A stretch of 64,000 bases of DNA, taken from assembly GCA_046563655.1 (NCBI GenBank), contig CM102285.1, positions 7,626,001 through 7,690,000 of the forward strand, written 5' to 3'. The translations under genes were made by a program, and so were the position numbers. The DNA is from Yuukianura sp. NJ FZ-2021. Its lineage: Eukaryota. This document shows positions 4,690 through 64,000 of the stretch, piece by piece. Below the pieces are notes generated by a model that was not told the origin of the DNA, did not search any database, and worked only from the letters and a program-made list of their open reading frames with translations. Numbering within the stretch: the first letter of the stretch is position 1; each line of letters begins with the position of its first letter.

Positions 4690-4983
4690 GGTGTCAAAGG
4701 TCAAGGTGACTTCCAGAAAAGTTGTTCACCTCAATGAGATGAACAACTTTTGCAGGAGTAATTTTCCTCTTTTCCGACAAAAATACATTTGATCTTGACC
4801 TTTGACCCTTAAGGGGTCTACTTCCGGTCAAACGGGTCACTGATTGTTCACCCTCAGACCATATCAAGTCCATCTGTGAAGACTGACAATCTGTCCAGCG
4901 GTTCCAGAGCTAGCTTGACCAGCAGACAGACAGACAGACAGACTCGGGGAAAAAACATAAAGTAGCTCATACTTTCGCTACTT
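4690..4983 (-). mobile_element. Partial Helentron/DINE-1-like element (HINE)
   Basis: Terminal hairpin AAGTAGC...GCTACTT, (GACA)n microsatellite, GACCTTTGACC motif and AAAAGTTGTTCA...TGAACAACTTTT inverted repeat, all shared with the other copies. Confidence 0.6.
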
Positions 4984-14310: not shown

Positions 14311-14381
14311 GACCGAGTGGGATTCGAAACCACGTCTTTCTCCAATCCGGGGAGACTGCACTGCCCTTATGCTACCAGGCC
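14311..14381 (-). ncRNA. tRNA-like cassette in the 3' LTR of the TRIM (B-box G>T change)
   Basis: Second copy of the cassette, with GGTTTCGAATCC instead of GGGTTCGAATCC. Confidence 0.7.
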
Positions 14382-14609
14382 ACATTCTACAAACCTCTCG
14401 AAGGATGGAGCAATTGGAAGGCAGCTATCCCAGCTATCTCTTCCATGCAATCCTCATCCAGTGGCGAGTGGGAATGGGTTTCTTCCCAAACGCCACACCA
14501 CCCGCCCCTCAAGCCCCCTATTGCCGTATCCCGGCGTTGGGCGCCATATGTGACGTTCAGGGGTCACATGGCTTGAGAGACAAAGAACGAGAGTGTAGAA
14601 AAAATAAGT

Positions 14610-14679
14610 GACCGAGTGGGATTCGAACCCACGTCTTTCTCCAATCCGGGAGACTGCACTGCCCTTATGCTACCAGGCC
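14610..14679 (-). ncRNA. tRNA-like Pol III cassette in the 5' LTR of the TRIM
   Basis: GGCCTGGTAGCATAAGGGCAGTGC...GTGGGTTCGAATCCCACTCGGTC: A-box, intact B-box/T-arm, anticodon stem TCTCC/GGAGA, followed by a T6 run. Confidence 0.75.
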
Positions 14680-40500: not shown

Positions 40501-40999
40501 CCTCAGAAGTTCGACAGTGTCTTCCTTCGTACTTGGATTTAGTTATGAAATAAATGGAAATATATCACCTGTATTGCCCCCGAATGCTCAGGGTGGGGCC
40601 CACAAAGTGGCAAGGCGTATATCCAATTATCAATCGATGTCCACAAAAGATGGTCCGGCCAGGGTCACCATAAATGTTGAGAGTGCCGTCAAAACTACCC
40701 GTTTCGAGAACACTGCTCGAATACCAGTTGTCCTTTGTGGAAAAATGATTCGTAGTGATACTAAGGGTTGAAGTGTTTTTTAGTAGTTGTTTAATTAACG
40801 ATTATCTTCTTACTACTAACAATGTTCTCTTCTTCTTAAAATTGTATATCTATGCACGCACACTTCCTTTTTTCTATAGCAATATTTTCATCTAACATAA
40901 CGAGGAAAAAAGGTGCCAAACTCTTCAAGAGATGGAGTTATATCTCTGAATAAACCTTAGAACAAATATTAAATTAAAGTTACGTAGCCACTTTCTACA
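34553..40999 (-). mobile_element. Full-length BEL/Pao LTR retrotransposon
   Basis: LTRs 34553-34879 and 40675-40999 (TG...CA); 5-bp TSD GTTAG; PBS TGGTGACCCTGG; PPT AGAAGGTGGGAGGA; single long ORF. Confidence 0.97.
34922..40282 (-). CDS. BEL/Pao Gag-Pol polyprotein (Gag, zinc knuckles, protease, RT, RNase H, integrase)
   Basis: Uninterrupted 1786-aa ORF: triple Cys/His knuckle, CDPGAQ protease site, RPVFDAS and YVDN RT motifs, FCDAS RNase H, HHCC plus DLAG/SDNG/GGWWE integrase. Confidence 0.96.
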   Translation of the reverse strand: MERERRLRRPLRAQLTRTTNQIDDELAKEEPDFQLLRVHLFKLEKAMTDLSGIDQSIMDAMLNADCTDEEQDEETKVVEEYSDKYVTAKLKVEGVLFRPDPVRSNSPHESQSATSRTTNQEHKRSFKLPKTELRTFNGDLKEWLSFWSQFQNIDEDETLHATDKFQYLIQALDKGTEPRELVTSFPQTAENYPKAVEALKERFGSESLLIQVYVRELLKLAIHNVTQKEKIPVSKMYLQIESHLRALDSLKLASADPSTWLFPLVESSLPEDTLRAWQRSTLSTGQGTSGDNKTNLDRLMEFLKSEVKNEQRIQLAQEGFQSMSLTQKNQKRNPNASETSRMKNQREKSDVPTAAGLFSGNASNCIFCDKAHESKDCGKTQKMTIEEMNSKIRNKNACFLCLKVGHNSKKCRSFVSCLLCHKKHQTVMCPEVKKKNEHNKHEPKKDDTVVTTQNNLSCTTEVLLQTLLVTAVNNGKKKTLRVLCDPGAQHSYILQSTARDLELLPSGQVILRHTLFSGRNYTQEHNKYEVHLQPHGRSKGETGTIQVLDQSKICEAVPRMLKGSWMKELKKKNIWLSDVGSGSPEVEILIGSDYYTKMFTGRSHQLQNGLLAIETTFGWTLSGQVNNSAESTARSAISMHILAEDVTVTGFWDLDTIGIKDPAEHKSKMEVELETKQHFLQSVTRSDDGRYKVKLPWIDEAPDIPSNRVIAERRLLNATKKLQDKGQLKAYHEIFQTWLQEGFVEKVTGTALEGHYLPHHPVFKPESLTTPVRPVFDASCKTRRAPSLNDCLHKGPNLMELIPTVLLRFRENKIGVISDIRKAFQMIEVEEEDRNFLKFLWWEEPDGMTLQEFRHKRVVFGVNCSPFLLAAVLELHLKNVAPEDKEVADKLWRSLYVDNCVTSLNSNEEYKKFRNDSTSLMAQAKMELRCWEYGSIDAELQDESGKEVTSVLGIKWDKRRDELKIDLTQSPLPTVITKRTILSAVHKVFDPLGFVTPALIPPKLILQETWAKDVTWDEELEDDMAARFRSWLQEASALRDTTVPRDLNPYRVEPTSLSVHVFCDASKDAYATVIYLRAEHGDDVSVRFVQAKARVAPLKKARGKDGTSTEKKLSIPRLELMGATIGARLLQTTKESLGLEGVTEYFWSDSTTVISWIQRNDDWGTFVGNRVKEILSLTKSEDWRHVPGKMNPADLPSRGCTAAQLLVSDWSSGPKWLYDRKENWPTFDTCVVNEQEVIAERKKTTRTMTVISESAPFQLPFSVYTKNVKVMAWVIRFVRNIRLPKEKRDLSQYHTIKKMRDAQNQLMKIVQDEAFPRGADDIQGIKVKLEDGLLKVRSKVMFRTDKIEFRSPIILPKDHPIVTQLIRHIHVANCHAGIQVVLGSLREKFWILQGRRAVAKVIRNCVTCKRYATQNFAVEPVALPVHRVEAAEAFQNVGVDLAGPLSLDDGTKVWIVLYTCAVYRAVHFDQVVSLSTEAFIGSLERFINTHGRPNVLHSDNGTNFVGAASLFKLLNWKKIETECEVKSIRWIFNPPTAAWWGGWWERLVRSTKDLLRKMLGQAKLNYDELRTCLSSVEATINSRPLTTVTEDTDDLRPLTPMMFVRGLSQAQFPEGERINSKTLQQRFKKVQELKKSLQARFRKEYLSLLVQKAQEKKIKLPVVGDVVLVGSDDKKRFQWPMGRIVALVPGKDSHIRTAKVKVLLGTKSKNKMKYHTRIIVRPLQRLYPLEIPRPEEVPVEGIHLADEADKRKEMSGEPEDSQDREVKTRSGRKIVLPRRYGQWNYE

Positions 41000-41073
41000 G
41001 TTAGAGAACGTCCAAACCTTTTGATTTCCTTTTCTTGAAATTTGGTAAGGTTTGGAGTGAAAATGATACTAAT

Positions 41074-43863: not shown

Positions 43864-44518
43864 GAGATTTTTCCCCCTCTCAATTGATTCTGAGGATGAA
43901 TTCCAAGTCAATGGAGGCAATTGACTCACTTTCTCTTTCCCGCTTTCCTCATCCTCATGCATTTGCCATCTAGTCCCTCCCAATATTGCTCCTTTCTCAT
44001 AATCGTAAAGCAGTCGCTGTGCCCACTTGGTCTGATTTCTTCTATTATGACCTCTTCACCGGCAAAGATGTCTACTTGCTGTTAGACCTAACGATACGAC
44101 TTATATTGGGCTTCACGTAATCAGCAATTCGCAGACGTTATTGATGTTATTGCCAATATTTCCAGAAGATGTTTCCCGAGGAAGCTGAATTGTCAAAGCT
44201 GTCCTTCAACATTTCCTTCAACCTTATCGAGCACACTAACGGCTCGCCAATGATCATTGACTGCAGTTTAGTCACGTCAAAATGGTATAAAGAAATACAC
44301 TATTTTACATGTAAAATTGAGTTTTGAAAAGTTAATCACAACCGTTTCTTATAAGGATTTGAAAATTTTGGTGTCCGTTTCTAAGAAAAGATAAGGATGC
44401 GAATTTTAGCCTGCGGAAATTTGAGGTTAGGCGGAGGCGAGGAATACAAGAGGCGAAGGAAACTCCTGCCCGTAAATGCAAAGAGAAAACCAAAATCAGA
44501 ATGTCTCTTCCGTTATGA

Positions 44519-45608
44519 ATAAACCGGTTGTAAACCGCCCATACTGATAATAGCGAAGCAATAGGCCCCCCGAAGGGGGTTTGTTCCCCCCACTTTCCTG
44601 CCTCCCCCCCCCGGGGGAAGTGGGGGTGTGTTTTCCTCACTTTCCCGCCCCCCCCCCGGGGAGTAGGGGTGTGTTTTCCCGCTTTTTTGCTCCGCACCCC
44701 AGGAAGCGTAGGGTGTGTTCCCCCACTTTCCAGCCCCCCCGGGGTAGTGGGGGTGTGTTCCCCCACTTTCCCGCCCCCCCAGGGGGTTTTGACAGGTGAG
44801 ACGTGACAGCTGAGGCGTGACAGGTGACACCCGGCAAGTGACACTTGAGGGTGACAGGTGACACGCGGCACGTGGCAGGTGACACCCGGCAAGTGACAAG
44901 TGACAGGTGACACCCGGCACGTGACAGGTGAGAGGTGACACCCGGAAAGTGACAGGTGACAGCTGACACCCGGCAAGTGACAAGTGACACCCGGAAAGTG
45001 ACAGGTGAGAGGTGACACCCGGCAAGTGACAGGTGACAGCTGACACCCGGCAAGTGACAGGTGACACCCGGAAAGTCACAGGTGAGAGGTGACACCCGGA
45101 AAGTGACAGGTGACAGCTGACACCCGGCAAGTGACAGCCGTGACAGCCGTGACAGGTGACACCCGGCGCGTGACAGGTGAAGTGACAGATGAAGTGTGAC
45201 AGGTGACAGTTGAGTGTGTTAGTCAACTGCGTAATGGATTTTTTGCTAAGCAGAAAACCAACTACCATGCCAATTGCCTTTCCAGTCTCACAAGCAGAGT
45301 CTTTGTTACATACACTTGCATTACAAATGACCTTTAAAATCCATTTTGACCCGGAAACAGGTGACCTAGGGTCACACATTCCACACAAAAGTTGTTAGTC
45401 TCAATGAGATGAACAACTTTTGTAGAGGTCATTTTCCATGTTACCGGGGATGAAACCGGTTGACCTTGACCTTTGACCCGGAAGGAGTTGACACCCGGGG
45501 GTCATATTCAATAGTGACCAAGCCCGGGTCATGACATGGTCACTGGTGAAAACCGGAATCAAATCGGGCCAGTAGTTTCTGAGATAATTAATCTGGACAG
45601 ACAGACAG

Positions 45609-48457: not shown

Positions 48458-49444
48458 AAGTAGCTTTCGCTACTTTATAAAAGCGTTTTTGTCCGTCATC
48501 GCGTTTTCCGTCCTAGACCCGTAAGGAAAGCCTGTCCGTCATCGCGTTTTCCGTCCTAGCATAGGGCTCACCATTGAAGAAGTAGTGAAAATGTGAGGGA
48601 AATTATCTCGGAAACTACTGGATCGATTTTGCGCCAGTTTTTTCTAGTGACTATCTCATGACACGGACATGGTCACTATTGAATAATATCCCGGTGTGTC
48701 AACTCCTTCCGGGTCAAAATCGATTTCAAAGGTCACGTGAATTTATGCATTGAAGAAGTGTGGGTAAAAAAAACGCTGCTTGTGAGACTGGAAAGGCATT
48801 TGGCATGGGAGTTGGTTCTCTGCTTAGCAAAAAATCTATTACGCAGTTGACATATACACTTTACACACTTATGCACTGTGTCCACCGTGTGTCACCTGTT
48901 GATTGCCGGGTGTCACCTGTCACCTGCCGGGTGTCACCTGTCACCTGCCGGGTGTCACCTGTTACCTGTTAATTGCCGGGTGTCACCTGTTACATACCGG
49001 GTGTCACCTGTCACTTGCCGGGTGTCACCTGTCACCTGTCACTTGCCGGGTGTCACCTGTCACCTGTCACTTGCCGGGTGTCACCTGTCACGTGCCACGT
49101 ATCACCTGGCACCCTCAAGTGTCACTTGCCGGGTGTCACCTGTCACGCCTCAGCTGTTACGTCTCACCTGTCAAAACCCCCTGGGGGCGGGAAAGTGGGG
49201 GGAACACACCCCCACTCCTCCGGGGGGGGCGGGAAAGTGGGGGGAAACACACCCCCACGCCTCCTGGGGTGCGGAGCAAAAAAGCGGGAAAACACACCCC
49301 TACTCCCCGGGGGGGCGGGAAAGTGGGGAAAACACACCCCCACTCCCCCCGGGGGGGGAGGCGGGAAAGTGGGGGGAACAAACCCCCTTCGGGGGGCCTA
49401 TTGCTTCGCTATTATCAGTATGGGCGGTTTACAACCGGTTTATT
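48458..49444 (+). mobile_element. Chimeric HINE copy
   Basis: 5' hairpin AAGTAGCTTTCGCTACTT and GTCCGTCATCGCGTTTTCCGTC repeats as in the 50965 copy; 3' half as in the 44519 copy. Confidence 0.8.
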
Positions 49445-49446
49445 AT

Positions 49447-50355
49447 AATAGCGAAGCTATTATTATAGAAGACGTCTGTCTGTCCGTCTGTCCGTCTGTC
49501 TGTCTGTCTGTCCGGATTAATTATCTCAGAAACTACTGGTTCGATTTGATTCCGGTTTTCACCAGTGACCATGTCATGACCCGGGCTTGGTCACTATTGA
49601 ATATGACCCCCGTGTGCCAACTCCTTCCGGGTGAAAGGTCAAGGTCAACCGGTTTTATCCCTGGTAACCGGGAAAATGACCTCTACAAAAGTTGTTCACC
49701 TCATCGAGGGGAACACCTTTTGTGTTTAATGTGTGACCATAGGTCACCTACTTCCGGGTCAAAATCGATTTCAAAGGTCATTTGTAATGCAAGTGTGGGT
49801 ACAAAAAACTCTGCTTGTGAGACTGGAAAGGCAATTGGCATGGGACTTGGTTCTCTGCTTAGCAAAAAATCTATTACGCAGTTGACATATACACTTTACA
49901 CACTCATGCACTGTGTTCACCGTCTGTCAGCTGTCACTTGCCGGGTGTCACCTGTCACTTACCGGGTGTCAACTGTCACTTGCCGGGTGTCACCTGTCAC
50001 CTGTCACTTGCCGGGTGTCACCTGTCACCTGTTAATCGCCGGGTGTCACCATTCACATACCGGGTGTCACCTGTCACTTGCCGGGTGTCACCTGTCACGT
50101 GCCTCGTGTCATCTGTCACTCACCCTCAAGTGTCACTTGCCGGGTGTCACCTGTCACGTCTCACCTGTCAACACCTCCTGGGGGGCGGGAAAATGGGGGG
50201 AACACACCCCCACTACCCGGGGGGGGGGCGGGAAAGTGGGGGGAACACACCCCTACTCCCCGGGGGGGAGGCGGGAAAGTGGGGGGAACAAACCCCCTTC
50301 GGGAGGCCCTATTGCTTCGTTATTATCAGTATGGGCGGTTTACAACCGGTTTATT
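49447..50355 (+). mobile_element. HINE copy, head-to-tail with the previous one
   Basis: AATAGCGAAGCTATT 5' hairpin, (GTCT)n, GTCACCT array, CGGTTTACAACCG 3' stem-loop. Confidence 0.85.
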
Positions 50356-50485
50356 AATACTCGAATACTTAACCTAACTTACCATGAAGAAACTAGAGTG
50401 AGAATTAAAATTATTAAAAGTGCCTCTATAATGTTTTTTTAATCCCGAAGCACAAAATTACTAACCAAAAGTAAAATAATTCAAT

Positions 50486-51674: not shown

Positions 51675-54600
51675 ACTTTATTTAACACAACAGAACTGAA
51701 AAAACTTACACCTGCCAGAGGCAGGTTGAGATATTTAAAGAGGTATTGGAAAAATGTTTAAATCATGTAGATTTCGTAGAGTTCTTTTCCTGACGGTAGG
51801 GTTCCCAATATAGAAGTGGCATTTCCTCTTTGGATGGCAAGGCTAATTCGCTGAAAGAGGAAGGATGTTGCTCGATTGTCACCGGTGGCTTCTGAGAGGC
51901 GATGTCCAATGGAATTGAGTAGACGTCGGCCTTCTTCCCCGAAGACTCCAGTTGTCTCAACTGCAATGATGGAAACAATAAATCGATGGTCAAGGTCACG
52001 GTAGAGGTCATGCTTATGGATTTCGGCAATGGCAGCAGGATGACCAAGAACGGAAGATGATGTTGCAAGGTAGGACGCAGCGAAGGTGTCACGGCAGGTA
52101 AAGTCCCAGGCAAGGGAGCGACCGGATTTCCAAGGGATGAGAGTAATTCCATCAGGTCGTTTCCCATCAGTTCTGGAACAGCCGGAAGGTTCTTTCATGC
52201 AAGGTATCCCTGCTGTCCGAAGTGATCTTGCGATGATGTCGTTTACAGAACCATGTCTTGATTGTCTTCCGGCGCTTCTAGTACAGCTTAGGCCATGTAG
52301 TCCATCACTCAGAACTGAAGTTCCACAGGGGCAACGATGGGGTTGGCAGATTTCTGTTCCTAACCGAACTGAACAGGAGATTCGGAATTGTTCATCGGTT
52401 AGGAGAGTGCCCAGAGGAGAAGATGGAATAGCATTCAACCAGTCACCAGAGTGAGGGGCGCAACCAGCGAGCAAACGGGCTTTGTCGGTTTGAGTAGATG
52501 AGTTTTCGAGTAGAGAGGAGTAAATTTGTTTGAAAATCTGCTGTTCCCATTGCTTTTGGACTTTCCCGTCTTCAGGTGTCTCAAAACCCATTTCGGACCA
52601 ATTGAGAGAAGCGATGTCCACTGAGGTGTCAAATGGCGATAGATGACTTGGAAGAAAGGCAGAGATGAGCTCGGCACAACTATGAACTGAAGCCAAAAAC
52701 GAGAGAGTAGCACAGTTCGAAGCATGACGAACACCTAAGCCTCCTTGATTCACCGGCAATGAAGATTGACACCATGCCTCTTCAGTCAAACTTGAGTTGA
52801 GGATGGATTCCAGTACGGTGCGTAGAGCTGAATCATACTCTAAAAGAAGGTCCGTTTCCAGAAATGATGGAGAACATCTGAGGAAGTACAACAGTCTTGG
52901 GGTTGATATTGAGGCCCGAAGTAAGAAAAATGCTACATGGGCAGGCAGGGAGGAGAGTTTTGAAGATAGTGTTTTGAAGTCTTCAGTCTTCAACTTGAGA
53001 ATGCGTCTTGAAGAATCTTTGAAGAGAGGGGCTCCCAAGAGTTCCGCTTGGTCTTTCTCAGGAAAAACAAGTTCAGGAGAAAGTGCTTTGAAGGCGCTGG
53101 AAATCAATTTTCTTTCATCGTTGTCAGCAGATAGAATAATTATTTCACACTTCTTCATGTTGAGGTGTAGTCCAAATGATGGGGCATTTGATTGGATCGT
53201 TTTGAGATTCTCGAGAATTACATCTGGAGAGTCAGCCAGAGTGGCGTCATCCAAGTACCAACAATTGAATTCGGTGGTTAAAGATGAGGCCAGTGGATGA
53301 ATGGTTAAGGCAAAGAGTGCAGGTCCTAGGGGATCCCCCTGCTGGATGCCTAACTTTGATTTGATGCAGTTCTCATTGTAGAATAGGTCAGTTTCGATGG
53401 AGTAAGCTTGAGACACAAAATTGAAGAAATCCGGGAGATGGAGTTTCACGGTGTTCAGCATCTCGTCTCTTCGGAGGAGATTGAAGGCATTAGTAAAGTC
53501 TAGTTTCACGAGAACTTTTGGCGATGAGTGATTGGCGTTGCAGTATATCCGGGCAGCATGGGCGACGGCTTCGGCTCCGTTCTTGACGCCGACCCCTACT
53601 TGAATTGGGCTCAAGACGGACGTGATAATGTTCATCGAGCGAGACAGGATCAGTTTCGATGCAAGGCGTCTCCACGTCAGGCCGATGGCGATTGGCCGGA
53701 TTCCACCCTTTTTCTTTTGTATCGCAATTAGAGAAGCGCCAAAGAAGATTGGTCGTATGTCGTCAGGCAGAGATCCATTGGTGATGAGGTTGCACAGCTT
53801 AGAGATGGAAGAGAGAAGTGTTAAACCTGCATCGCCAGAAGATTTTGATGTTAGCTCCTTTAGAATTTGCGGACGAAGGGAGTCAAGGCCACCGGAGGAA
53901 CCGTTTGGAAATGAAGAAATGGATTTCAGGATGTCACAGTCTTCGAAGATGTTGTCTTTTTGAGGTGGTGGGTTCGGTAAGTTGATAGGCATTGGGTGAG
54001 TCGGGTGTAGTTGGTTGAGAGCATCAATAGTAGAAGAGTCATCCGGGGCAGAACAGTCGTCAGAACATAGAACTCGGATGGATCCACGGATGTCACCGTC
54101 GGCGAGTTTAGATTGGACGAGTTTAGAACAGTTCCACTGTGTTGATGTTTGTACTTGACGCGTCAGGTTGTAATTAGATGTTAAGTTGAATGTAGATGGC
54201 GGAGAGATGGTGTTGAAGCGGTCGACATTTGACTTTACCCATTTGGTGAGGTTCGGTATCTGTTTGTCTTCTTTCTTCGGGAGATGAAGTACGGTATAAG
54301 GAAAGAGGAAAAGTTTTTCCCAGGCTTCAGAAGAGTTCTGGACAACGACTTCATCTATGACGGCGGAGAGTTTGGATGCCACAGCTTGTCGAGCTCCCTT
54401 GGGAATGTGTTTGAGAGTTTGAATCGATTTTTTTAAAACTGCGAGGCGGGAGCCAATGGAAAGAACCGGAGATGATTCAGCAGAGAGGTTGGACCATGCG
54501 ATCCCAAGATACGACTGCTCAATGTGCTTTCGTCCGCTTGCTCTTGTTTTGATGACGTTAGGAAATATTTTCTTGAGTTTTGAACCCATGGTAGTGTCCG

Positions 54601-55337
54601 ATAGTGGTTTGATATGAACTGATGCGCAGAAGAGGTGATATTTTTCTTTAAATTCTTGCTTTTTCATCAAACCACCGGAGACTAGGCGGATATTGTTGGA
54701 GATCCAGTCGTCACTTAGTTTAGAAATTACAGATTTGCTTCGAGTCTCGGTAGTAGAAGTACGATTGGAGAATGTCTGATGTCTGGCTGAATCGTCAACT
54801 CCCAATCCGCAGTCATCTAATGATGACCCGATTCCGGGAATCTCCACGATTGTAGTGTCACAGATCGATGTTTCAGGTTCAGTTTGAAGTACATTGGAAT
54901 TGGAAGAACAGTCTGAATTAAAGATGTTTTGAAAGTTTTCTTGAAAGTTCGGATTTATGTTTGAATTGAAGCTTTCCATTTTCCAAGTTGTAGTTGTCAA
55001 GCCGATGTGTTTCACAGTTCTCAATCCAGAAATTATCGAAGAAGAGACGGAACAAGATAATATTGTCCTGGAGATGAGCAATTGAAGTTTTGTTTGTTTG
55101 AGTTATGAAATGTTTGAGAGCGTATTTTGACGTCAAATTTTCAGCCCTTTGGACGGCGATAGTGGGCCAGTTGACAGGAGTCCGGATGTTGAATGGATGA
55201 AAAAGTATGTCAAAAGATGCGCGACAATGAGATGAACACTTTGATGTAAAGAAGATGGAATTTTGCGCTCTAAATCACTCTCAAAAAATCAAAAACTCGG
55301 GAGCAGCATTTTGCGTGTTGCTTGTTTTGTGTGGAAA
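51675..55337 (-). mobile_element. Full-length CRE-clade (RLE-type) non-LTR retrotransposon
   Basis: 11-bp TSD AGCTAAAGCTA (51664-51674, 55338-55348); single ORF; short 3' UTR with hairpin ACCTGCC-TCT-GGCAGGT ending at AATAAA. Confidence 0.9.
51758..54979 (-). CDS. RFX-like winged helix + reverse transcriptase + CCHC + restriction-like endonuclease polyprotein
   Basis: IRPIAIG, QVGVG, LDFTNAFN, QQGDPLGP, WYLDD (CRE-type RT); CPCG...HGLSC, RH, RPDG...WDFTC (RLE). First ATG at 54979; the frame is open to 55081. Confidence 0.93.
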   Translation of the reverse strand: MESFNSNINPNFQENFQNIFNSDCSSNSNVLQTEPETSICDTTIVEIPGIGSSLDDCGLGVDDSARHQTFSNRTSTTETRSKSVISKLSDDWISNNIRLVSGGLMKKQEFKEKYHLFCASVHIKPLSDTTMGSKLKKIFPNVIKTRASGRKHIEQSYLGIAWSNLSAESSPVLSIGSRLAVLKKSIQTLKHIPKGARQAVASKLSAVIDEVVVQNSSEAWEKLFLFPYTVLHLPKKEDKQIPNLTKWVKSNVDRFNTISPPSTFNLTSNYNLTRQVQTSTQWNCSKLVQSKLADGDIRGSIRVLCSDDCSAPDDSSTIDALNQLHPTHPMPINLPNPPPQKDNIFEDCDILKSISSFPNGSSGGLDSLRPQILKELTSKSSGDAGLTLLSSISKLCNLITNGSLPDDIRPIFFGASLIAIQKKKGGIRPIAIGLTWRRLASKLILSRSMNIITSVLSPIQVGVGVKNGAEAVAHAARIYCNANHSSPKVLVKLDFTNAFNLLRRDEMLNTVKLHLPDFFNFVSQAYSIETDLFYNENCIKSKLGIQQGDPLGPALFALTIHPLASSLTTEFNCWYLDDATLADSPDVILENLKTIQSNAPSFGLHLNMKKCEIIILSADNDERKLISSAFKALSPELVFPEKDQAELLGAPLFKDSSRRILKLKTEDFKTLSSKLSSLPAHVAFFLLRASISTPRLLYFLRCSPSFLETDLLLEYDSALRTVLESILNSSLTEEAWCQSSLPVNQGGLGVRHASNCATLSFLASVHSCAELISAFLPSHLSPFDTSVDIASLNWSEMGFETPEDGKVQKQWEQQIFKQIYSSLLENSSTQTDKARLLAGCAPHSGDWLNAIPSSPLGTLLTDEQFRISCSVRLGTEICQPHRCPCGTSVLSDGLHGLSCTRSAGRQSRHGSVNDIIARSLRTAGIPCMKEPSGCSRTDGKRPDGITLIPWKSGRSLAWDFTCRDTFAASYLATSSSVLGHPAAIAEIHKHDLYRDLDHRFIVSIIAVETTGVFGEEGRRLLNSIGHRLSEATGDNRATSFLFQRISLAIQRGNATSILGTLPSGKELYEIYMI

Positions 55338-55351
55338 AGCTAAAGCTACTT

Positions 55352-56595
55352 AATAAACCGGTTGTAAACCGCCCATACTGATAATTGCGAAGCAATAGGC
55401 CCCCCGAAGGGGGTTTATTCCCCTCACTTTCCTGCCTCCCCCCCCCCGGGGGAGTGGGGGCGTGTTTTCCCCACGTTCCCGCCCCCCCCCGGGAGTAGGG
55501 GTGTGTTTTCCCGCTTTTTTGCTCCGCACCCCAGGAGGCGTGGGGGTGTGTTTCCCCCACTTTCCCGCCCAACCCCCGGGGTAGTGGGGGTGTGTTCCCT
55601 GCACTTTCCCCCCCCCCCCAGGGGGTTTGACAGGTGAGACGTGACAGCTGAGGCGTGACAGGTGACACCCGGCAAGTGACAGTTGCGGGTGACAGGTGAC
55701 ACGCGGCATGTGACATGTGACAGGTGACACCCGGTATATGACAGGTGACACCCGGCATGTGACAGATGATACCCGGCACGTGACAGGTGACAGATGACAC
55801 CCGGAAAGTAACAGGTGACAGCTGACACCCGGCAAGTGACAGGCGACACCCGGAAAGTGACAGGTGACACCCGGAAAGTGACAGGTGACACCCGGAAAGT
55901 GACAGGTAAGAGGTGACACCCGGAAAGTGACAGGTGGCAGCTGACACGCAGCACGTGACAGCTGACACCCGACACGTGAGTGAAAGTTGACAACTCTCAC
56001 CCGGCAAGTGACACGTGACACCCGGCACGTGAGTGACAGGTGACAACTGACACCCTGCAAGTGACAGCCGTGACAGGTGACACGCGGCACGTGACAGGTG
56101 ACAGGTGACACCCGGTATGACAGGTGACATCCGGCGCGTGACAGGTGACACCTGGCACGTGACAGATGAAGTGACAGATGAAGTGTGACAGTTGACAGTT
56201 GAGTGTGTTAGTCAACTGCGTAGTGGATTTTTTGCTAAGCATAGAACCAAGGCCCATGCCAATTGCCTTTCCAGTCTCACAAGCAGAGTTTTTGTTACAC
56301 ACACTTGCATTACAAATGACCTTTGAAATTCATTTTGACCCGGAAGCAGGTGTCCTATGGTCACACATTACACACATGTTACCGGGGATAAAACAGGTTA
56401 ACCTTGACCTTTGACCCGGAAGGAGTTGACACCCGGGGGTCATATTCAATAGTGACCAAGCCCGGGTCATGACATGGTCACTGGTGAAAACCGGAATGAA
56501 ATCGGACCAGTAGTTTCCGAGGTACGTGATCCGGACGGACGGACAGAGGGACGGACGGGCAGACAAACCTCTTTTATCATAATAGCTTCGCTATT
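55352..56595 (-). mobile_element. HINE copy with a long GTGACAG array
   Basis: Same termini and modules as 44519-45670. Confidence 0.85.
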
Positions 56596-57194
56596 ATAAC
56601 AATTTAACTGCAGTTGAAAATGTTAGTTTGAGTCCAGTTTAAAATTTCAGAGTTTGTTCAGTGGCCCCAAATAAAAGTTGTTGATTTGTTCAAATTTTTG
56701 CGCAGTGTTACTTTAGTCTTTGCGTAATTAGCACAAAGGTCATTGATTCGCGGGGTTAATCAGGAATAAGTTCCCCAAAGATCACGTGACCTCCTGTTTT
56801 GGACTTTTGCAACTCTGCGACATATCCATTTCTAAACATTCATATGCATAGGAAAGCAAATATATATTAAGTGAAATTCCTTCAAAAAAGTGCTGTTTTG
56901 TTGTTGAGAACAACAAAACTTTTCAAAAATTGAAACTGCAAAATCAATATCTTGTCAAGTGGAAAAACTTTTTGAAATGAATAGACAAGGTTTGACTACT
57001 AGCACCTCGAAAACTTTGTTTAGACTAAAAGTGAACAAAGTATTTTTAAACAAAATAAAATTTGTAATTACCATTGTGCAATTTTGTGAAAAGTTGTCAG
57101 GCAGGAGTTTCAAAAACTCCCAAATCCACGGAGCAACAAGTGGTTAAGGCCAATCTAACTTAGGTCAAAGGTCAACGGTGTAGATTTATCAAGT

Positions 57195-57422
57195 ATGGCG
57201 AGTTCATGGACGAAAATTGACAGTTCGTGGCCGCAGGATCAGTGGGACGCTGTATTGGATTTTTTTGGCCATGACAAGTTCAGTATCTTCGTAAAGGGAA
57301 GTTTCGGTGTGTTCTTTGGTCTCTTTTGATTAGTTGGATCACTATTTACAATTGTTGACCTCACTGGCAAGCCAAAGTTCATGGCCCGGTATAAAATTCA
57401 GGAGAACGTCAAGACATATCCC
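57195..57422 (+). pseudogene. FAXDC2: First exon of a fatty acid hydroxylase domain-containing protein 2-like gene with a premature stop
   Basis: MASSW...QDQWDAVLDFFG...GLF*LVGSLFTIVDLTGKPKFMARYKIQ, then GTAAGT donor; TGA at 57327 replaces the expected Trp. Confidence 0.7.
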
Positions 57423-57490
57423 GTAAGTCTCACCTAATTGTTGGAAGGTGGCGAGAAATTTTGAATTTGAAAACTTAAGAACAGGTTAGG

Positions 57491-57925
57491 TTAGGTTGGA
57501 TCGGCCATTGAACTTGACTCGCCTTCAGGAATTTTATTTGCCTCTGATTCACTTTTAACCCTATCTCTCCGAGAAAGAATACTAGTTATGCTTTCTAAGG
57601 ATACGTCAGCCTCCTGATCAGATCCTCCTGATTCTATGGATCGAAAAGTTTCGTCTGTGCCTGACGGTACTTCCTCAATGTCAGAAGCGAGTTGTGAAAT
57701 ACTAACTTCAATAATCCCTGAATCGCTTGGTCTGGAAGTCTGAGGTAATGTACCTACCTCCGGTACCGCAACACCTGTAGACGAGCCTGGGGGTTGATCA
57801 CCTTGATTTGGTGACTTCGACTTCCCTCGGGCTTGTTTCAAAACAATGGACAAATCGTGAACTCCAAACTCTGGTTCTTGTTGTTGTTTTCTAGTTCGCG
57901 GTGGACTTGAACCTCCTTCGCTCAT
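57491..57925 (-). CDS. Probable Gag N-terminus, truncated at the element breakpoint
   Basis: Ser/Glu-rich disordered 144 aa downstream of PBS and MMP on the same strand; ends abruptly at a TAACC repeat. No diagnostic Gag motif, so the call is positional. Confidence 0.45.
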   Translation of the reverse strand: MSEGGSSPPRTRKQQQEPEFGVHDLSIVLKQARGKSKSPNQGDQPPGSSTGVAVPEVGTLPQTSRPSDSGIIEVSISQLASDIEEVPSGTDETFRSIESGGSDQEADVSLESITSILSRRDRVKSESEANKIPEGESSSMADPT

Positions 57926-58058
57926 TCCACGTTAACTTTAGAATAAAACAAACCATATAAACTCCACCCGACTTGTTATTTGCGTACTAGTTTATTTTCC
58001 GAATGAGTCAATCAATAAATAGGATAATTAAATAGATGTACGAACCTACTGGATACCC

Positions 58059-59441
58059 TTAGGTGCAAAACCAGCAAACTAATACCACAACTATGACTAC
58101 AACAGTAGTACTACCTAAAGCTATTCCTGTTAATGGTAGGCCACCGATAGGTTCCGACACTACCAAAGCCTCAGCGGAATTGCATGGCAACTCCAAATAG
58201 TCCATTAAAGGCTTCACGGAATGTAGGACCAAATTGGTGTCAAAATCTAAAATATGGCTACCATTATACGTGGTGTAGCCTTCCGGATGGATATCAATTA
58301 CGTTAAACGCCTGGGTGAGATTAGTAAGTTGGGGTAGCATGCCTCGTGAGTAGGTCCATTCTTGCAGGAATCTTTGATGTATATAGTACTGTTTCCAGCC
58401 GTTCTCTAACTGTAAATACAGTCGTTTTGGGGATGACAATACACCGATAACTCTAGTTTCATTGATTCCTAGTTCTGTCATTGGTTTGGGATACCCGGGT
58501 GATAATGTTGCTGCGAACCCAAACTCCCAGAGTTGATCATCACCAATGAGAAATGTTTTCTCATAAAATCGGAAAATTAACTCAATTCCCATGTTCGGAG
58601 GGTAATGTTGAAAATAGTTGGCATTGAAAACTTTATACGGAAAAGAGACTTTTCCCTTGGAAAGGCGATAATGGTAGTTGTCATTAAAAATGAAGAACTC
58701 ATTTCCCCACTTTAAAACATGTTCGAAATTCTCCTTACACATACTTTGTATCAAGTTATCCAAGGTAGGGGATGCGTCCCTCCTACCATGCGATAGATTT
58801 CGACTAAATCTATAAAGATCACGCAAGGCATTTCTATCCCTTTTTCCAATAGACATGTTTTTGTCAATGAGATGATACATCGGATGCATCACTGATCCTG
58901 GTACTTCAGAGTGTGATAAGCCTAGTGCATGCCCTATCTCGTGAACCATAACTGAAAATACATCTACTCCTTTTCTACCAGGCGTGGTAGTCCAATTTTC
59001 GGCTGCATCAAAATGAATGTCTCCGCCTAACCCAACATTCGGGTAGTAGGCATGTGCTAAGATCCCTCTTACACCGTCAAAAACCATGACGTCGCCATGA
59101 TAGCCTTTTGCAAATTGAATTGAAATGTCTACAGTTTCATTGACTCTACGACTAAACGTAAAATTCGAAATCTCTTCCCATTTTTGAAAAGCAAACTCAA
59201 AGTTCTCTATGAGATCTTGAAAATCCATCGTAGTGGGAATGTCTTCTTTGACGTCCCAAGTCAAATTTGAAGTTTTCCACTTCCGGTCCAAAATTTGTCT
59301 TTTTCTTCTCATAGGGTACTCCTTCCCCTCATGACAGCGGATGGTATCCTCGTTCTCGTAACTGAGAACGGTAGCCATTGTAGTTGTTGTACAGATCAAG
59401 GTCATCACCCAAATCGAAATAAATCCTATCATCCTCGTCAT
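58059..59441 (-). CDS. Intronless membrane-anchored matrix metalloproteinase (M10A)
   Basis: Signal peptide, RC remnant of the cysteine switch, furin site RRKR, HGD..FDG..G.LAHA, D.HFD..E.W, HEIGHALGLSHS zinc motif, Met-turn SVMHP, hemopexin-like region, hydrophobic C-terminus. Confidence 0.95.
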   Translation of the reverse strand: MTRMIGFISIWVMTLICTTTTMATVLSYENEDTIRCHEGKEYPMRRKRQILDRKWKTSNLTWDVKEDIPTTMDFQDLIENFEFAFQKWEEISNFTFSRRVNETVDISIQFAKGYHGDVMVFDGVRGILAHAYYPNVGLGGDIHFDAAENWTTTPGRKGVDVFSVMVHEIGHALGLSHSEVPGSVMHPMYHLIDKNMSIGKRDRNALRDLYRFSRNLSHGRRDASPTLDNLIQSMCKENFEHVLKWGNEFFIFNDNYHYRLSKGKVSFPYKVFNANYFQHYPPNMGIELIFRFYEKTFLIGDDQLWEFGFAATLSPGYPKPMTELGINETRVIGVLSSPKRLYLQLENGWKQYYIHQRFLQEWTYSRGMLPQLTNLTQAFNVIDIHPEGYTTYNGSHILDFDTNLVLHSVKPLMDYLELPCNSAEALVVSEPIGGLPLTGIALGSTTVVVIVVVLVCWFCT

Positions 59442-60493
59442 TCTAGGAAGATAAATAAAAGGAATTTCAACAATTCCAGTTTCCTAACCTTAACGTCCAA
59501 GTTGTATAAGGTAGGTGACCCATCAATCTTCGGGTCAATCACCCCTCTGATGTGGCTTTAGTTCAGGGTCAGACCAGTTCCTCTCACAATCCCAAAATTT
59601 TTAAAATCTCTAATGCCCTCTTCCGGAGGCAGGGGGTATACTTCAAAACAAAATTGACAACGAGCCTTAGGCTACTGGCCCGGTCAGATGGCATGGATTG
59701 TGAATTTCTGTCGAGCATTCATAGCTCTATAAGCTTCCACAGCTTTTACAAAAATGTAAACGAAACGCCTTAACATTCTTCGGTAGTCCATTGGGCCCTC
59801 TACTACCTTAGCCATCTTACTAAAGGAACATCCCTAACACCTACATCAACACCCTAACTATGATGGACCGCCCAGTTAAGGCGGGTCCACGCCCCTTCGG
59901 ATCCATCGTGATATCTCTAAGTGACCACTCCCCAATCTTGTTCCTACATACTAACTTGTCTCTCGGGAGGTCATGACTCCACCCTCACCAAGTTTTCTGA
60001 TTGTCACCCGACGAAAGAGCAGCTATAGGGCAAAGCCACAGCTATAGCCCGGTCATGATTCCACCGTTTGCTAAGGTCAACTCATTGACCCGACTGGTCC
60101 TTTTCACAAGGAATAATACAATCCAATCCTTTCCGGACACGGAACTCAAGTTCTGTGTTTCACTTAGAGTCTTTACTCCATTGGCCTATCCTAGCCACTG
60201 GAGGGTCAATTGTCTAGTAACTAAAATCCGTAAAATTAGTTGACCTACCTAGAAGAAATCTAACCTAACTTATCGTTCCCTAAAGAAAATAACCTAGACA
60301 GAAAGGAAATTACTAGCCTACTACAACATCTCCTATTGTCCAACAAAACAGTCCTCTAGTCCGGTACCTTTCTCCCACCATACCTTCTACTACATGAATA
60401 GAGGTGCCCATGACCCCTTCTACTTTCTACTTGACTAAATCCCTATTGTTCCAAAAACAAATTCTGAAGACAATAGCGGCTTCCATGACAACC

Positions 60494-60512
60494 AATCCTG
60501 TCACGGTCGCCA
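60494..60512 (-). promoter_or_regulatory. Primer-binding site complementary to tRNA-Arg
   Basis: Minus strand CA-ac-TGGCGACCGTGACAGGATT, matching the 3' end of insect tRNA-Arg(TCG) as recalled. Confidence 0.85.
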
Positions 60513-60514
60513 GT

Positions 60515-61930
60515 TGAAACCTCCCCCAAAATCATCTACATAGAAATCACCTAAACTGAGCAGGATCTCTCTATATCTTCTAGATCTGTATCATATAGAC
60601 TCAATCCGAATCTCCTTGATAATAAAAGCTAAATTCTCCTTTCTCACCTTTGGACTTGAATCTAACTTGCTGGTCTAGCACCAGCTTCCGGGGTTTCATT
60701 TAGTTCTTAGATTGGTTGGTGAAAGTCGTTAGAGAGAAGTGAAAGCGTTTTGATCATTTGTGGGCAGAGCCCAGCAGGAGGACCTGAGCACTTACTTAGG
60801 TGTAATATGTTTCGAACATACCTGAGGTCTGGCCTTGCCTTGGCGCTGCCTCTAATTCAGATGTCCGCTGGGTTGACCTCTTGACCTCTGGGTTGACCTG
60901 TGGGCTCCGGTTGGTGGTGGCTCGGAAGGAAGATGCTCGTCAGAAGTTAGAAGTTGAAAGAAAGTGAAAGTTGAAAGTAGACGCGAATGAAGTGACTATG
61001 TTTTTAATTCTGAGATTTGAAAGTGAAAGGGCCAAGATTGGCCAAGTGCCTACTGCTATTTACTTAAGAGCTTAGCGAGCTACTGGACAACTGACCAAGA
61101 GGTCGGACTACCGATCCTCTATTTATCCCTAAAGATTAGAAGATCTGGACATGCAAGAACATGATCTTCGAACTCATTAACTAATAAACATGTCTAACTA
61201 ATCTACACTTTGTAACTACAAAGTTTCAAAATCATCAAGTTTCTAGTCTTTTTCTAATCTATGTTCTTACCAAAAAGACATAAACTTTGTCTTAAAATTT
61301 GAATTAGTAATGCTAACTAAGTGAAACTTAAGTCACGTCAGATTACTCATGACTTGACTTTTACTGTTGATTGCGAAAAGTCATAAACTTTTCGCAGCTG
61401 ATAAGGGTGATCAGTCAGCACCCTGGGGTCGTCTCCCTCCTGATTAGAGAACACGCGAAAAAGGAATGAACTAATTCATTCCCTTCTCCCGTGCTCCAGT
61501 GAGAAATCTGCCAATCAATACTTTAAAATTGATTGACAGCTTTCTCCACTGTTACACTGGTCAGTGACCACTAACTGGTCATGACCACTAACTGGTCAGG
61601 GCCACTAACTGGCCTCAAGAGGACGTAGAGCGTCCATTTGACCTTACGGTGACCCTTGGCTGGCAGAAGAAGATGAAGAGGACAGGCACGGCGTGGCAGG
61701 AGGATCTGCTGCTGCTGCTGACTGCATGAGAGCTGGAATCCGAGTGAGTGCTCGTGCAGCTCGTGCTTCTGCTTCTGCTCTTCTTCTTTTTTGAATTCGG
61801 GGAAGCGGGAAGCGGGGAAACACTTATGGGCATTGCCCTAACTTATATTTTTAACTCTTTTTAACTATTTTATGTTTTTAACTTAGCTTATATTTTTAAT
61901 TAGTTGTTAATTGAGGATCATATCCTCACA
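60515..61930 (-). mobile_element. LTR region between an upstream PPT and a downstream PBS (probably one 1416-bp LTR)
   Basis: TG at 61930 directly after PPT AGCGGGGAGGGGGTGA; CA at 60515 directly before the PBS; TATA-like ATAAATA (61126-61120), Inr TCAGTT (~61092), ATTAAA (~61005); TGACCACTAACTGGTCA repeats near 61560-61615. Confidence 0.65.
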
Positions 61931-62180
61931 TCACCCCCTCCCCGCTTTGTAGCTTTGCTACAAAGAGAGGAAGACAAGGGAAGACAAAAATTTTGGAATG
62001 AAAACAAATAAACAATGAAAATGAAACTTTGACAAAAATTTTGAAAACTAATTACTAGGAAATGGTGACAAGTGTCAAAAAATGAATTTAACTGAAAACT
62101 ACGGTGCTGAAGGCACTTAATACGGGACTCTAGTCCCATCTAATCTATCACTAGACAAACTGAGCACACAAATCGTCGCT

Positions 62181-62831
62181 TTAGGTTGTTTTGGCGTAAC
62201 GAGGGTTACTTTTCTGGTTCGTTTTGAATTGGTTTCTGCGCGGGGCTTTGCAAGTCGACGCATAGTGACCGGGCTGACAGCAACGTAGGCAATGTAGCTC
62301 CTTTTTAAGCGGAACTGGAGCGAATCTACGCGGAAACTGGCTCGTTTTGGATGGTTTCGCCGGAGGAGGAGGAGGAGGAGGTGGCAGATTTTGAATTGGC
62401 GGTGGAGGAGGAGGCGGCGGAGGCAAATTCTGAGGAACCATTGGAGGTGGGGGAGGCGGCGGAGGAGCCGGTTGACACTGGACCGTGACTGTAATGTCCG
62501 GGAGCCTTTCCTCTGGAGATTTAGGAGACGGAGACCTTGGTCGGCTCCAAAAATAAATGGAAGGCGGGAACTTCTCGCGCAGGACAGAATCGAGGTACAT
62601 GAGTTTGGAAGTCGTGAGGCCTCTGCCAGTTTTATGCCAGGAGGTAGGAATGGCTTCAATAATCGCAGGATTCAAGTTACGCTTGGCATAATAAACGATT
62701 TCAGAGTCTGTAGGCTTTCGCTGGAGAGCAGATTCTATTTTAGGGATCAAACGCTTCAGGAAATCAGTGACGATCTCTCCGTCCCACTGAGGAAAATCAA
62801 GTTTAGGTCTGGCTGATCGCTGAGAAGACAT
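62181..62831 (-). CDS. Accessory mini-Gag-like protein (capsid-CTD-like, polyproline, CCHC knuckle)
   Basis: 216 aa between pol and the PPT; QWDGEIVTDFLKRL (MHR-like), three polyproline runs, CLRCCQPGHYASTC. Confidence 0.75.
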   Translation of the reverse strand: MSSQRSARPKLDFPQWDGEIVTDFLKRLIPKIESALQRKPTDSEIVYYAKRNLNPAIIEAIPTSWHKTGRGLTTSKLMYLDSVLREKFPPSIYFWSRPRSPSPKSPEERLPDITVTVQCQPAPPPPPPPPMVPQNLPPPPPPPPPIQNLPPPPPPPPAKPSKTSQFPRRFAPVPLKKELHCLRCCQPGHYASTCKAPRRNQFKTNQKSNPRYAKTT

Positions 62832-62861
62832 GCTAAACCAACAAAAGAACAGAACGAAAAA

Positions 62862-64000
62862 TTAAATGCCTGCTGTACGATTACGTAACTGGTAACTACT
62901 TTGTACAGGTACTGGCTTGGTCTTAACGACTTTTGCATAGGTCATAGGCTCAGGTAATGGTTCTGAAGGGCGGGAAAAATATCTTTTCAAATTGACTATG
63001 TTATGTCTGCCTGCACTTTCCTCAGAACCAAACAACTTTAGGCCGTAAACTAATGGCGTAACCTTCTCCGAAATGACATAAGGGCCTTCCCACTTAAATG
63101 CAAACTTTTTCATGATTCCTTTAGCCTTGTCTGACTGTATGTGAGTGCGCAGAAGGACTAAATCACCAACCTCAAAGCTGTCTGACCTACGTTTTTGATT
63201 GTAGTACTTGGCCTGGGAAGCTTGCGACTTTTCTAAGTGTTCCCTGGCTAATCGATAGACTTTAGAGAGACGCTCTATCAGGGTCAATTGGTAGTCTGTC
63301 CACTCGGCAAATTCGTCGCTCTGAGAGTCGTCTAAGGCCAAATCAAAGGGAGTGGAAAGCTCACGACCGAAATTTAACATAGAGGGGCCAAAACCTGTCG
63401 AATCGCTGATCGCAGTACGCAAAGCCATGGCAACTTCTGGGAGATTCTCATCCCATTTGGAATGTTTACGTGCTACGTAGGCTCTAAGAATGGCAATGAC
63501 GTTCCGATTGACACGCTCGGTAATGTTCGCCTGAGGATGATAGGTCGAAATGAATTTTAGCTTAACCTGCCAAGTTTTGCAAAGTTTCTTAAACAACTCA
63601 GAAGTAAATTGAGAACCATTGTCACTAAGTAACGCTCTAGGCCTACCGAAACGACAAAATACTTCCTGCTCGAGCTTTTGAATAATCTGAGGAGTCGTAG
63701 CCTCTCTGAGGGGAAAAATCTCAACCCATTTCGTAAAATGATCTGTCACGACTAGCAAAAACGTATTTTGACGTTGAGTTTTCGTAAGGGGGCCTATCAA
63801 ATCAAGGGCTAACATATCCCATGGACCTCTAGTCTGGACACTTTGGAGCTCACCTACTGGTTTCGTAGTGGGATTTTTAGTCTTTTGACAAATGTCGCAG
63901 GACGTAACGAATTTGTAAATGTCCTCGTGCATACCAAACCAGAAGACTCGACGTAGTAATCGGTAAAGGGTCTTTCGGAAGCCCATGTGACCTGACTCGG
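62862..64000 (-). CDS. Gypsy/Ty3 integrase (3' end of pol, continues beyond the window)
   Basis: H..C..C zinc motif, LDLIGP, SDNGSQF, YHPQANITERVNR, GPY; resembles Osvaldo/Ulysses-type integrases. Confidence 0.95.
   Translation of the reverse strand, partial: ESGHMGFRKTLYRLLRRVFWFGMHEDIYKFVTSCDICQKTKNPTTKPVGELQSVQTRGPWDMLALDLIGPLTKTQRQNTFLLVVTDHFTKWVEIFPLREATTPQIIQKLEQEVFCRFGRPRALLSDNGSQFTSELFKKLCKTWQVKLKFISTYHPQANITERVNRNVIAILRAYVARKHSKWDENLPEVAMALRTAISDSTGFGPSMLNFGRELSTPFDLALDDSQSDEFAEWTDYQLTLIERLSKVYRLAREHLEKSQASQAKYYNQKRRSDSFEVGDLVLLRTHIQSDKAKGIMKKFAFKWEGPYVISEKVTPLVYGLKLFGSEESAGRHNIVNLKRYFSRPSEPLPEPMTYAKVVKTKPVPVQSSYQLRNRTAGI

Follow-up and report, generated by a model that had tools for sequence, protein, structure and literature searches.

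In a 64,000-nucleotide stretch of the Yuukianura sp. NJ FZ-2021 genome (GCA_046563655.1, contig CM102285.1, positions 7,626,001 to 7,690,000; hereafter the window), the minus strand carries an intact, intronless gene for a membrane-anchored matrix metalloproteinase (MMP) behind the end of a long terminal repeat (LTR), a primer-binding site (PBS) and a leader of about 1 kb; all parts of the element described below lie on this strand. On balance, and with modest confidence, we interpret the MMP as an accessory (cargo) gene of one subfamily of Ty3/Gypsy LTR retrotransposons. An earlier note on this DNA had proposed that the enzyme is carried inside such an element, between its PBS and gag. This interpretation survived in part, in that the LTR-element context, the presence of multiple copies and a bias toward synonymous differences spoke for it, while the supposedly gag-like open reading frame (ORF), the lack of a full-length copy and the absence of the MMP from related elements spoke against it.

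The MMP ORF (58059..59441, 460 aa) is uninterrupted and encodes a complete matrixin. Residues 54-210 matched Pfam Peptidase_M10 (PF00413; MEROPS M10A) with E 1.5e-47 and a score of 161.9 bits, the cut-off being 24, and covered profile positions 1-158 of 159, and the zinc motif HEIGHALGLSH and the Met-turn SVMHPMY were both intact. In an alignment of 46 MMP sequences, the ORF retained 15 of the 15 invariant columns, among which are those of the three histidines that bind zinc and of the Met-turn methionine. Residues H167, E168, H171, H177, M185, H115, D117, H130 and H143 all fell in invariant or nearly invariant columns, those of E168, H115, D117 and H130 being nearly invariant and that of H143, the fourth structural-site ligand, invariant. 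An AlphaFold model (mean pLDDT 79.4) aligned over 376-388 columns with the full-length structures of MMP-13, MMP-1 and MMP-12 (E between 4e-27 and 7e-24) and with isolated catalytic domains at a root-mean-square deviation of 1.1-1.3 A. Profile, invariant columns and model thus confirmed the intronless 460-aa ORF with its catalytic and zinc motifs. The model also showed a hemopexin domain of four beta-strand blades (residues 241-411), for which the Pfam Hemopexin score fell just below its cut-off (21.1 vs 21.3 bits), with Cys235 and Cys420, in nearly invariant columns, placed as the hemopexin disulfide.

The domain order is signal peptide, short propeptide, catalytic domain, linker, hemopexin domain and C-terminal anchor, with an N-terminal hydrophobic (signal) helix, a furin site (RRKR, residues 45-48) and 9 N-glycosylation sequons. 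The C-terminal hydrophobic helix (441-459) ends one residue before the C-terminus and leaves no cytoplasmic tail; the anchor is either a transmembrane helix or a glycosylphosphatidylinositol signal. The MMP lacks the usual prodomain, which measures about 80 aa and contains the PRCGxPD cysteine switch, and Pfam gave no PG_binding_1 match. Only about 25 residues separate the signal helix from RRKR, among which R35-C36 align with the cysteine switch, and the model is disordered at residues 26-47. Some accepted MMPs likewise lack a full prodomain, so that its absence does not exclude matrixin membership. The description of the protein as an intact membrane-type MMP therefore holds, with a C-terminal anchor that may be of either kind.

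The DNA upstream of the MMP is that of a Ty3/Gypsy element. At the window end lies the integrase end of a pol ORF (62862..63998, continuing off the window), which matched Pfam rve (E 2e-14), Integrase_H2C2 (E 9e-14) and SH3_Tf2-1, a Ty3/Gypsy combination. It was 63-72% identical to pol on soil-metagenome contigs and, among annotated proteins, 53% identical to one of Orchesella dallaii, 49% to a Ty3 Gag-Pol of Folsomia candida and about 42% to tick proteins. Judged by this kinship of the transposon, the host is probably a springtail or a comparable soil-dwelling arthropod. Relatives of this pol at 49-72% identity carry protease, reverse transcriptase, RNase H and integrase together with a separate gag; the window shows the integrase only, upstream of the LTR. 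GC content at third codon positions was uninformative (MMP 0.41 vs integrase 0.44). The next ORF (ORF3, 62181..62831) starts 30 nt past the pol stop and encodes a proline-rich protein of 216 aa with a C-terminal CCHC knuckle. For comparison, we fetched 80 related metagenome loci. Aligned by hhalign with the post-pol ORFs of 7 of these loci, which have weak Arc C-lobe and zf-CCHC matches, ORF3 gave a probability of 97.3% (E 2.4e-11). Some copies in the sequenced sample lack ORF3 (contig joint 62143->62892). As an observation on the clade itself, its conserved third ORF resembles a mini-gag, with examples in loci L002 (3896-4459), L008 (3907-4422), L009 (4822-5292), L012 (5614-6132), L016 (4094-4630), L019 (3845-4291) and L024 (2437-3000).

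Downstream of ORF3 we found the purine run AAAGCGGGGAGGGGG (61934..61948), a putative polypurine tract, with TGATGTGAGG coming next. Integrase, ORF3 and purine run form the normal 3' end of the clade, indicating that the following unit of about 1.4 kb (TG...CA, about 60515..61933), bounded by the purine run and the PBS, is its LTR. The unit ends in ...GGTTTCA (CA at 60516-60515), followed by AC and, 2 nt past the terminal CA, by the PBS TGGCGACCGTGACAGGATT (60494..60512). This string occurs once in the window, and none of 100 shuffles contained a match with up to 3 mismatches. Read as the complement of a tRNA 3' end, it parses as CCA, discriminator, a 7-nt acceptor strand and a 5-nt T-stem strand, and the tRNA is putatively tRNA-Arg. 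No tRNA-Arg gene was present in the window, which gave two tRNA calls (Ser-like or undetermined), or in the 60 of the 80 related loci that were scanned, and literature searches for the PBS string returned nothing relevant. The LTR end, the PBS, a leader of about 1.05 kb from PBS to MMP ATG and the 133-nt gap that separates the MMP stop from the ATG of the following ORF (57926..58058) were all recovered as the earlier note had given them. The leader holds no ORF longer than 84 codons stop-to-stop on either strand.

PBS and purine run adjoin opposite sides of one LTR. Since a PBS directly past an LTR marks a 5' LTR, and a polypurine tract lies before it, this LTR serves two copies. The simplest reading of the window is that two copies share one LTR, with the 3' end of one followed by a 5' fragment of the other, the MMP-bearing copy. 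Tandems of this kind are a common product of unequal recombination. That the MMP lies within LTR-element sequence accordingly held up, as it adjoins the LTR end and PBS, and the LTR is itself preceded by integrase, ORF3 and purine tract.

Copies of this unit were abundant among contigs from three runs of one sample, placed at a likeness of at least 80%. The whole 7.4-kb stretch was covered by 479, 468 and 196 contigs in the three runs, and in run X1 the likeness classes 99+, 95-99, 90-95 and <90 held 176, 152, 77 and 74 contigs, respectively. MMP pieces among the matches listed were about 99% (records 2, 10 and 11), 95.7% (record 17), 84% (record 18, which spans the start codon) and 81% (record 3) alike. 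A copy of about 88% likeness extended from the MMP start into the leader as far as 60002, with 226 nt replaced (records 4 and 12), and pieces of about 80-90% likeness covered 60199-60521, comprising leader, PBS and LTR end (records 7 and 13). The multicopy check proposed for the MMP thus gave a positive answer: contigs 81-99% alike extend over LTR end, PBS, leader, MMP and the 144-aa ORF next to the MMP, and diverged copies keep the order PBS, leader, MMP. A high-depth contig keeps LTR blocks and rejoins at 60494-60528, indicating that a larger family shares the LTR end and PBS. The window letters at 58226 and 58647 were carried by no contig, which would be expected of a window copy that has several near-identical counterparts. 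Contigs with the MMP at about 99% likeness had depths of 337-523 (runs X1 and X2), compared with 45-78 for single-copy-looking contigs of the same runs, contig depth not being equal to copy number, and leader, PBS and 144-aa ORF were co-amplified with the MMP at like depth.

These data also bear on the idea that a unique MMP gene came to lie beside a retroelement end by chance or through an assembly chimera. The region is indeed a mosaic of nested repeats, and the unit is broken at 57495; independent short-read contigs nevertheless reproduce the PBS-leader and leader-MMP joins, in diverged copies too, and the stretch is not single-copy. We regard this explanation as very improbable.

Differences among the copies pointed to selection on the protein. 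In the coding sequence, 12 of the 17 listed differences were synonymous against 21% expected (binomial P 1.6e-5), and the 17 fell at codon positions 1, 2 and 3 in the ratio 6/0/11; they are a sample from the best-supported 41 of 950 differences and were not selected by codon position. This mostly synonymous pattern indicates purifying selection at the protein level.

An intact MMP under purifying selection would equally suit a host gene family with a co-opted LTR, in which an intronless, retrogene-like MMP gained its promoter and 5' exon from a truncated element (LTR, PBS and some of the leader) and was then multiplied by segmental or tandem duplication, without mobilisation by a retroelement. 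The structure of the unit counts against this rather unlikely explanation. The upstream copy has this LTR as its own 3' LTR, so that a tandem element plus a fusion would be needed; the 144-aa ORF travels with leader, PBS and MMP; and near-identical copies alongside older ones are a typical profile of a transposon. Its relict prodomain also makes the MMP more like the streamlined genes of viruses and mobile elements than like host MMPs, PG_binding_1 being present in most top matches, a comparison in which 44 of the 45 aligned homologues had been picked for full domains.

The ORF that follows the MMP (57491..57925) encodes 144 aa rich in Ser, Glu and Pro, and its designation as gag-like failed in every search. 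It matched no Pfam family, no relative among longer proteins and nothing in the Atlas; BLASTP against a relative's gag gave a best E of 0.099, and tblastn on the 80 related loci was blank. The N-termini of gag in the relatives cannot be aligned with one another either, so that little can be concluded from the blank search in either direction. Of the contigs listed, the two that extend to the end of this ORF both lose their match at 57495, with 363 and 35 letters remaining (records 9 and 16, overhangs read by the usual minus-strand convention), and the stop codon (57493-57491) lies beyond this break. The repeat that replaces the remainder of the element past the break (56609..57476, without strand assignment) is unrelated; a 35.8-kb contig has it, about 93% alike, but has nothing of the MMP side (record 15). 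Divergence of the contigs at 57495 and the separate occurrence of the repeat indicate that the window copy was cut at this point and that other copies have a longer ORF; the 144 aa are thus probably the N-terminal part of a longer ORF. The break junction itself (57483-57497) carries AACCTAACCTAACCT, two and a half arthropod telomere-type repeat units, and a satellite-bearing repeat (55270..56604) lies beyond the unrelated repeat. The placement between PBS and gag is thus half upheld, as the PBS does lie upstream of the MMP, while the next ORF has no gag signature and is cut at 57495. Within the cargo interpretation, the exact architecture of the earlier note, with an autonomous element, is doubtful.

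A next ORF that does not look like gag would be natural in a non-autonomous chimeric derivative, in which the MMP replaced gag-pol in a defective element (LTR-PBS-leader-MMP-short ORF-...-LTR) copied in trans by an autonomous family, analogous to acutely transforming retroviruses and gene-carrying plant LTR elements. Such a derivative is a sub-case of an MMP inside an LTR element and contradicts a position between PBS and gag. We consider it unlikely: beyond the point where the 144-aa ORF ends, other copies continue for 363 letters or more (record 9), so that this ORF is probably longer and coding, the gag N-termini of relatives are no easier to align, and two related loci, L008 and L012, carry an ORF before gag, indicating that autonomous relatives tolerate one.

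Loci with enough sequence contain gag, pol (1054-1108 aa) and then an ORF of 150-190 aa. The region before gag was visible in six of them (L008, L012, L003, L005, L009 and L020), of which L008 (5115-5460) and L012 (589-945) share a conserved ORF of about 119 aa ahead of gag, 49% identical, that matched no Pfam family and reached only E 0.14 for CARD; in L012 it is placed between a PBS-like TGGCGC motif and gag. A macro-like ORF (43% identity; Pfam Macro below threshold, E 0.008) was found in L003 (5020-5493), L005 (4574-4891) and L002 (1-444), after pol in two of the three and directly before pol in one. These two ORFs indicate that the clade takes up extra ORFs, including in the slot that the MMP occupies.

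Signals for expression of the MMP were predicted from the LTR onward. The LTR contains a TATA-like ATAAAT at 61126 and, at 61094, an initiator-like TCAGTT, which resembles the arthropod initiator consensus. In the stretch that leads from the LTR start to the 144-aa ORF, just two donor-like sites scored at least 8 of 9, CAG/GTATGT at 60821 and AAG/GTGAGA at 60647, and only two strong acceptor-like sites were present, one of them TTCCTTTTATTTATCTTCCTAG followed by A, one base before the MMP ATG (...TTCCTAG, first exon base 59443). The 271 nt from initiator to first donor contain no ATG (3.4 expected), compared with 6 ATGs from donor to PBS and 20 in the leader. Judged from these splice signals, the MMP is probably expressed from a spliced, LTR-driven mRNA with a predicted intron at 59444..60821 that contains the PBS and the ATG-rich leader. 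An AATAAA (57991..57996), 63 nt past the MMP stop and one of three AATAAA/ATTAAA sites in this stretch, is a possible polyadenylation signal of this mRNA. The same signals would serve the host-gene alternative, as an LTR donor with an acceptor one base before the ATG suits an LTR-driven chimeric host transcript and AATAAA stands directly past the MMP stop.

A number of observations weigh against the MMP being cargo of the element. None of the 80 related loci contained an MMP (0/80; tblastn, E<=0.01), and in L003, L009 and L020 a PBS-like TGGCGC motif lies merely 75-180 nt before gag. Contigs with integrase and U3 had depths of 1500-5300, several-fold above those of the MMP, with a peak at 61051-62038, indicating that the MMP is probably missing from most members of the family. 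If gag follows a first ORF of 1.4 kb, its translation is difficult to account for, and the acceptor-like site ahead of the 144-aa ORF is weak; the 144-aa ORF, as described above, has no gag identity. Inside the 64-kb window there is no second copy of the stretch 56605-64000 and only a single LTR there, no target-site duplication for the MMP-bearing unit and no gag-pol downstream of the MMP, and neither window nor contigs showed a complete MMP-bearing copy with an LTR pair. Collinearity and purifying selection are expected of segmental duplicates of a host gene too. The contig results rest on 24 listed pieces out of 1188 and, for the differences, on the best-supported 41 out of 950, and the sample may be the one from which the window was assembled. 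Among these points, the lack of downstream gag-pol, the MMP-free relatives and the excess depth of integrase and U3 favour a host gene family, and the lower depth of the MMP region, together with the dispensable translation of gag behind a 1.4-kb ORF, would fit a non-autonomous derivative. Absence from the related loci and the lower depth of the MMP indicate that the enzyme is at best a subfamily-specific cargo.

Interpreting the MMP as such a cargo, we propose the following course of events. The normal plan of the clade is LTR-PBS-gag-pol-ORF3-polypurine tract-LTR, and in the MMP subfamily a compact, intronless animal MMP, membrane-anchored and with its prodomain reduced to a cysteine-switch remnant and a furin site, would fill the slot between PBS and next ORF. 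In the window, the first copy would be represented by integrase, ORF3, purine tract and LTR, and the second by a 5' fragment of PBS, 1.05-kb leader, MMP and 144 initial codons of the next ORF, which unrelated repeat DNA interrupts at 57495. Transcription would start in the LTR near 61094, and in a fraction of the RNA the donor at 60821 would be joined to the acceptor at 59443; splicing would remove the PBS and all upstream ATGs, making the MMP ATG the first AUG, as in retroviral env mRNAs, and unspliced RNA would be the genomic RNA. The protein would then enter the secretory pathway, where furin cuts at RRKR, and become an active zinc protease on the cell surface. Anatomy, intact enzyme, multiple copies and synonymous bias were observed directly, while movement of the unit as a whole, splicing in this manner and any gain to the element are inferred.

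Searches for the origin of the MMP returned distant relatives. Among 5.8 billion clusters at near lengths there was no close relative: the 223 matches included none better than 40% identity over 30% of the query, the best being 29-40% identical, and the best full-length matches were membrane-type MMPs, 29-32% identical across some 61% of the query. A search at any length of 1.84 billion cluster representatives found none more than 47% identical, and the 12 top representatives inspected were tandem-domain or long multidomain matrixins without transposon domains. No annotated animal protein, springtails included, exceeded 47% identity, which again counts against a host gene family. IMG/VR yielded 4 pattern matches, of which 0 were confirmed. 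In a quick tree of 45 catalytic domains, weakly resolved with 6 of 42 inner branches well supported, the window MMP stood on a long branch (0.97) with no supported sister. Long branch and lack of a relative above 47% would fit a fast-evolving lineage that is not host-like.

The domain plan is that of an animal enzyme and not of a viral one. With the membrane-type and furin-activated animal enzymes MMP-14/15/24, MMP-17/25 and insect Mmp2, the window MMP shares the furin site (RRKR), the C-terminal anchor and the catalytic and hemopexin domains; unlike them, it has no PG_binding_1 prodomain, no cytoplasmic tail and no close orthologue (<=47% identity). The metalloproteinase of Epinotia aporema granulovirus (P0109) is likewise a matrixin borne by a parasite, and granulovirus MMPs have a proposed role in breaching the basal lamina. 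It differs in its low identity of 31%, which extends over only 48% of the query (E 5e-16), and in having no hemopexin domain by Pfam, whereas the window MMP has the animal plan of catalytic domain, hemopexin domain and anchor; in the quick, unresolved tree it was not sister to the window MMP. An origin from granuloviruses or other DNA viruses was set aside, the granulovirus match (E 5e-16) being weaker than those of animal MMPs (E 1e-36 to 1e-44). A prokaryotic origin was also considered; bacterial matrixins were among the matches, but without hemopexin.

LTR retroelements carry various cargo genes, dUTPase among them. Bdelloid rotifers have Vesta, Juno and TelKA LTR retrotransposons with a captured ORF3 that encodes a GDSL esterase, a DEDDy exonuclease or an env-like protein (PMC5408684). 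These Gypsy-like elements resemble ours in their family-specific enzymatic or membrane ORFs with intact catalytic residues, said to use spliced messages, and differ in that the extra ORFs described there follow pol and none is a metalloprotease, the window MMP lying instead 5', before the next ORF (PMC5408684). Plant Tat/Ogre Ty3/Gypsy elements are described with extra ORFs, some upstream of gag, and an orchid Gypsy element with a 2-ODD/AlkB ORF (PMC4408406, PMC9289625). They share with the MMP unit an extra ORF at a non-canonical place and an acquired enzyme ORF kept through subfamily diversification, and Ogre-type elements have a tRNA-Arg PBS and regulated splicing (PMC4408406); they belong to plant lineages unrelated to this arthropod clade, and their extra ORFs are PMD/Tr28 or a demethylase, not a secreted protease (PMC4408406, PMC9289625). 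Many accessory domains are reported for planarian Burro (PMC6431247).

Errantiviruses and other env-carrying Ty3/Gypsy elements possess a gene for a membrane-anchored glycoprotein with signal peptide and furin site (PMC13524379). Their env resembles the MMP in these three features and in its presumably spliced subgenomic RNA, and differs in being a fusogen encoded after pol, whereas the MMP is an enzyme without fusion-protein features encoded before the next ORF (PMC13524379). The window ORF after pol is capsid C-lobe/CCHC-like and not a fusion glycoprotein, so that the element does not pass as errantivirus-type. The string "metalloprote" had 0 occurrences in the main text of PMC5408684 and was absent from PMC13524379 and PMC6431247, and neither the passages of PMC4408406 on extra ORFs nor full-text literature searches, a coverage that leaves subscription journals outside, yielded a description of an LTR element carrying an MMP.

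Several other features of the window were recorded in passing. On the minus strand, 51758-55081 holds a 1107-aa ORF of a NeSL/R2-like non-LTR retrotransposon with RVT_1 and a match to the RFX DNA-binding domain (E 2e-6), its C-terminus bearing CCHC and what we take to be a restriction-like endonuclease-type motif. An apparently intact BEL/Pao element (34553-41000, minus strand) encodes 1786 aa with DUF1759, RVT_1, Peptidase_A17, integrase and DUF5641 between direct repeats (34553-34879 and 40675-40999) that are 89-97% alike. Arrays with a 7-bp period, all of one repeat family, occupy 44300-45400, 48800-50450 and 55270-56600 and produce long spurious ORFs in several frames (e.g. 55270-56151). 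A tRNA-Ser gene and a near-copy unassignable by ARAGORN lie at 14250-14795 in a 299-bp tandem duplication whose units are 99-100% identical.

If the MMP belongs to a host family with a co-opted LTR, the locus would represent ordinary LTR exaptation and retrogene expansion. If it is cargo, a complete extracellular-matrix protease kept by purifying selection through the divergence of a subfamily would constitute a new class of cargo, parallel to the independent acquisition of matrixins by insect DNA viruses, and, since it lies 5' and downstream of an intron predicted to be env-like, its expression model could be tested directly. A bolder and quite improbable extension is that this basal-hexapod Gypsy element replaced or complemented an envelope function with a surface MMP made from a spliced LTR transcript; by opening the basal lamina or other extracellular matrix, or by shedding host surface proteins, the enzyme might let capsids or capsid-bearing vesicles pass from cell to cell, for example from somatic gonad to germline, which would amount to a protease-based, not fusogen-based, route of retroelement spread. 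An MMP as cargo would suggest that tissue barriers, and not membranes alone, limit the spread of retroelements in animals.

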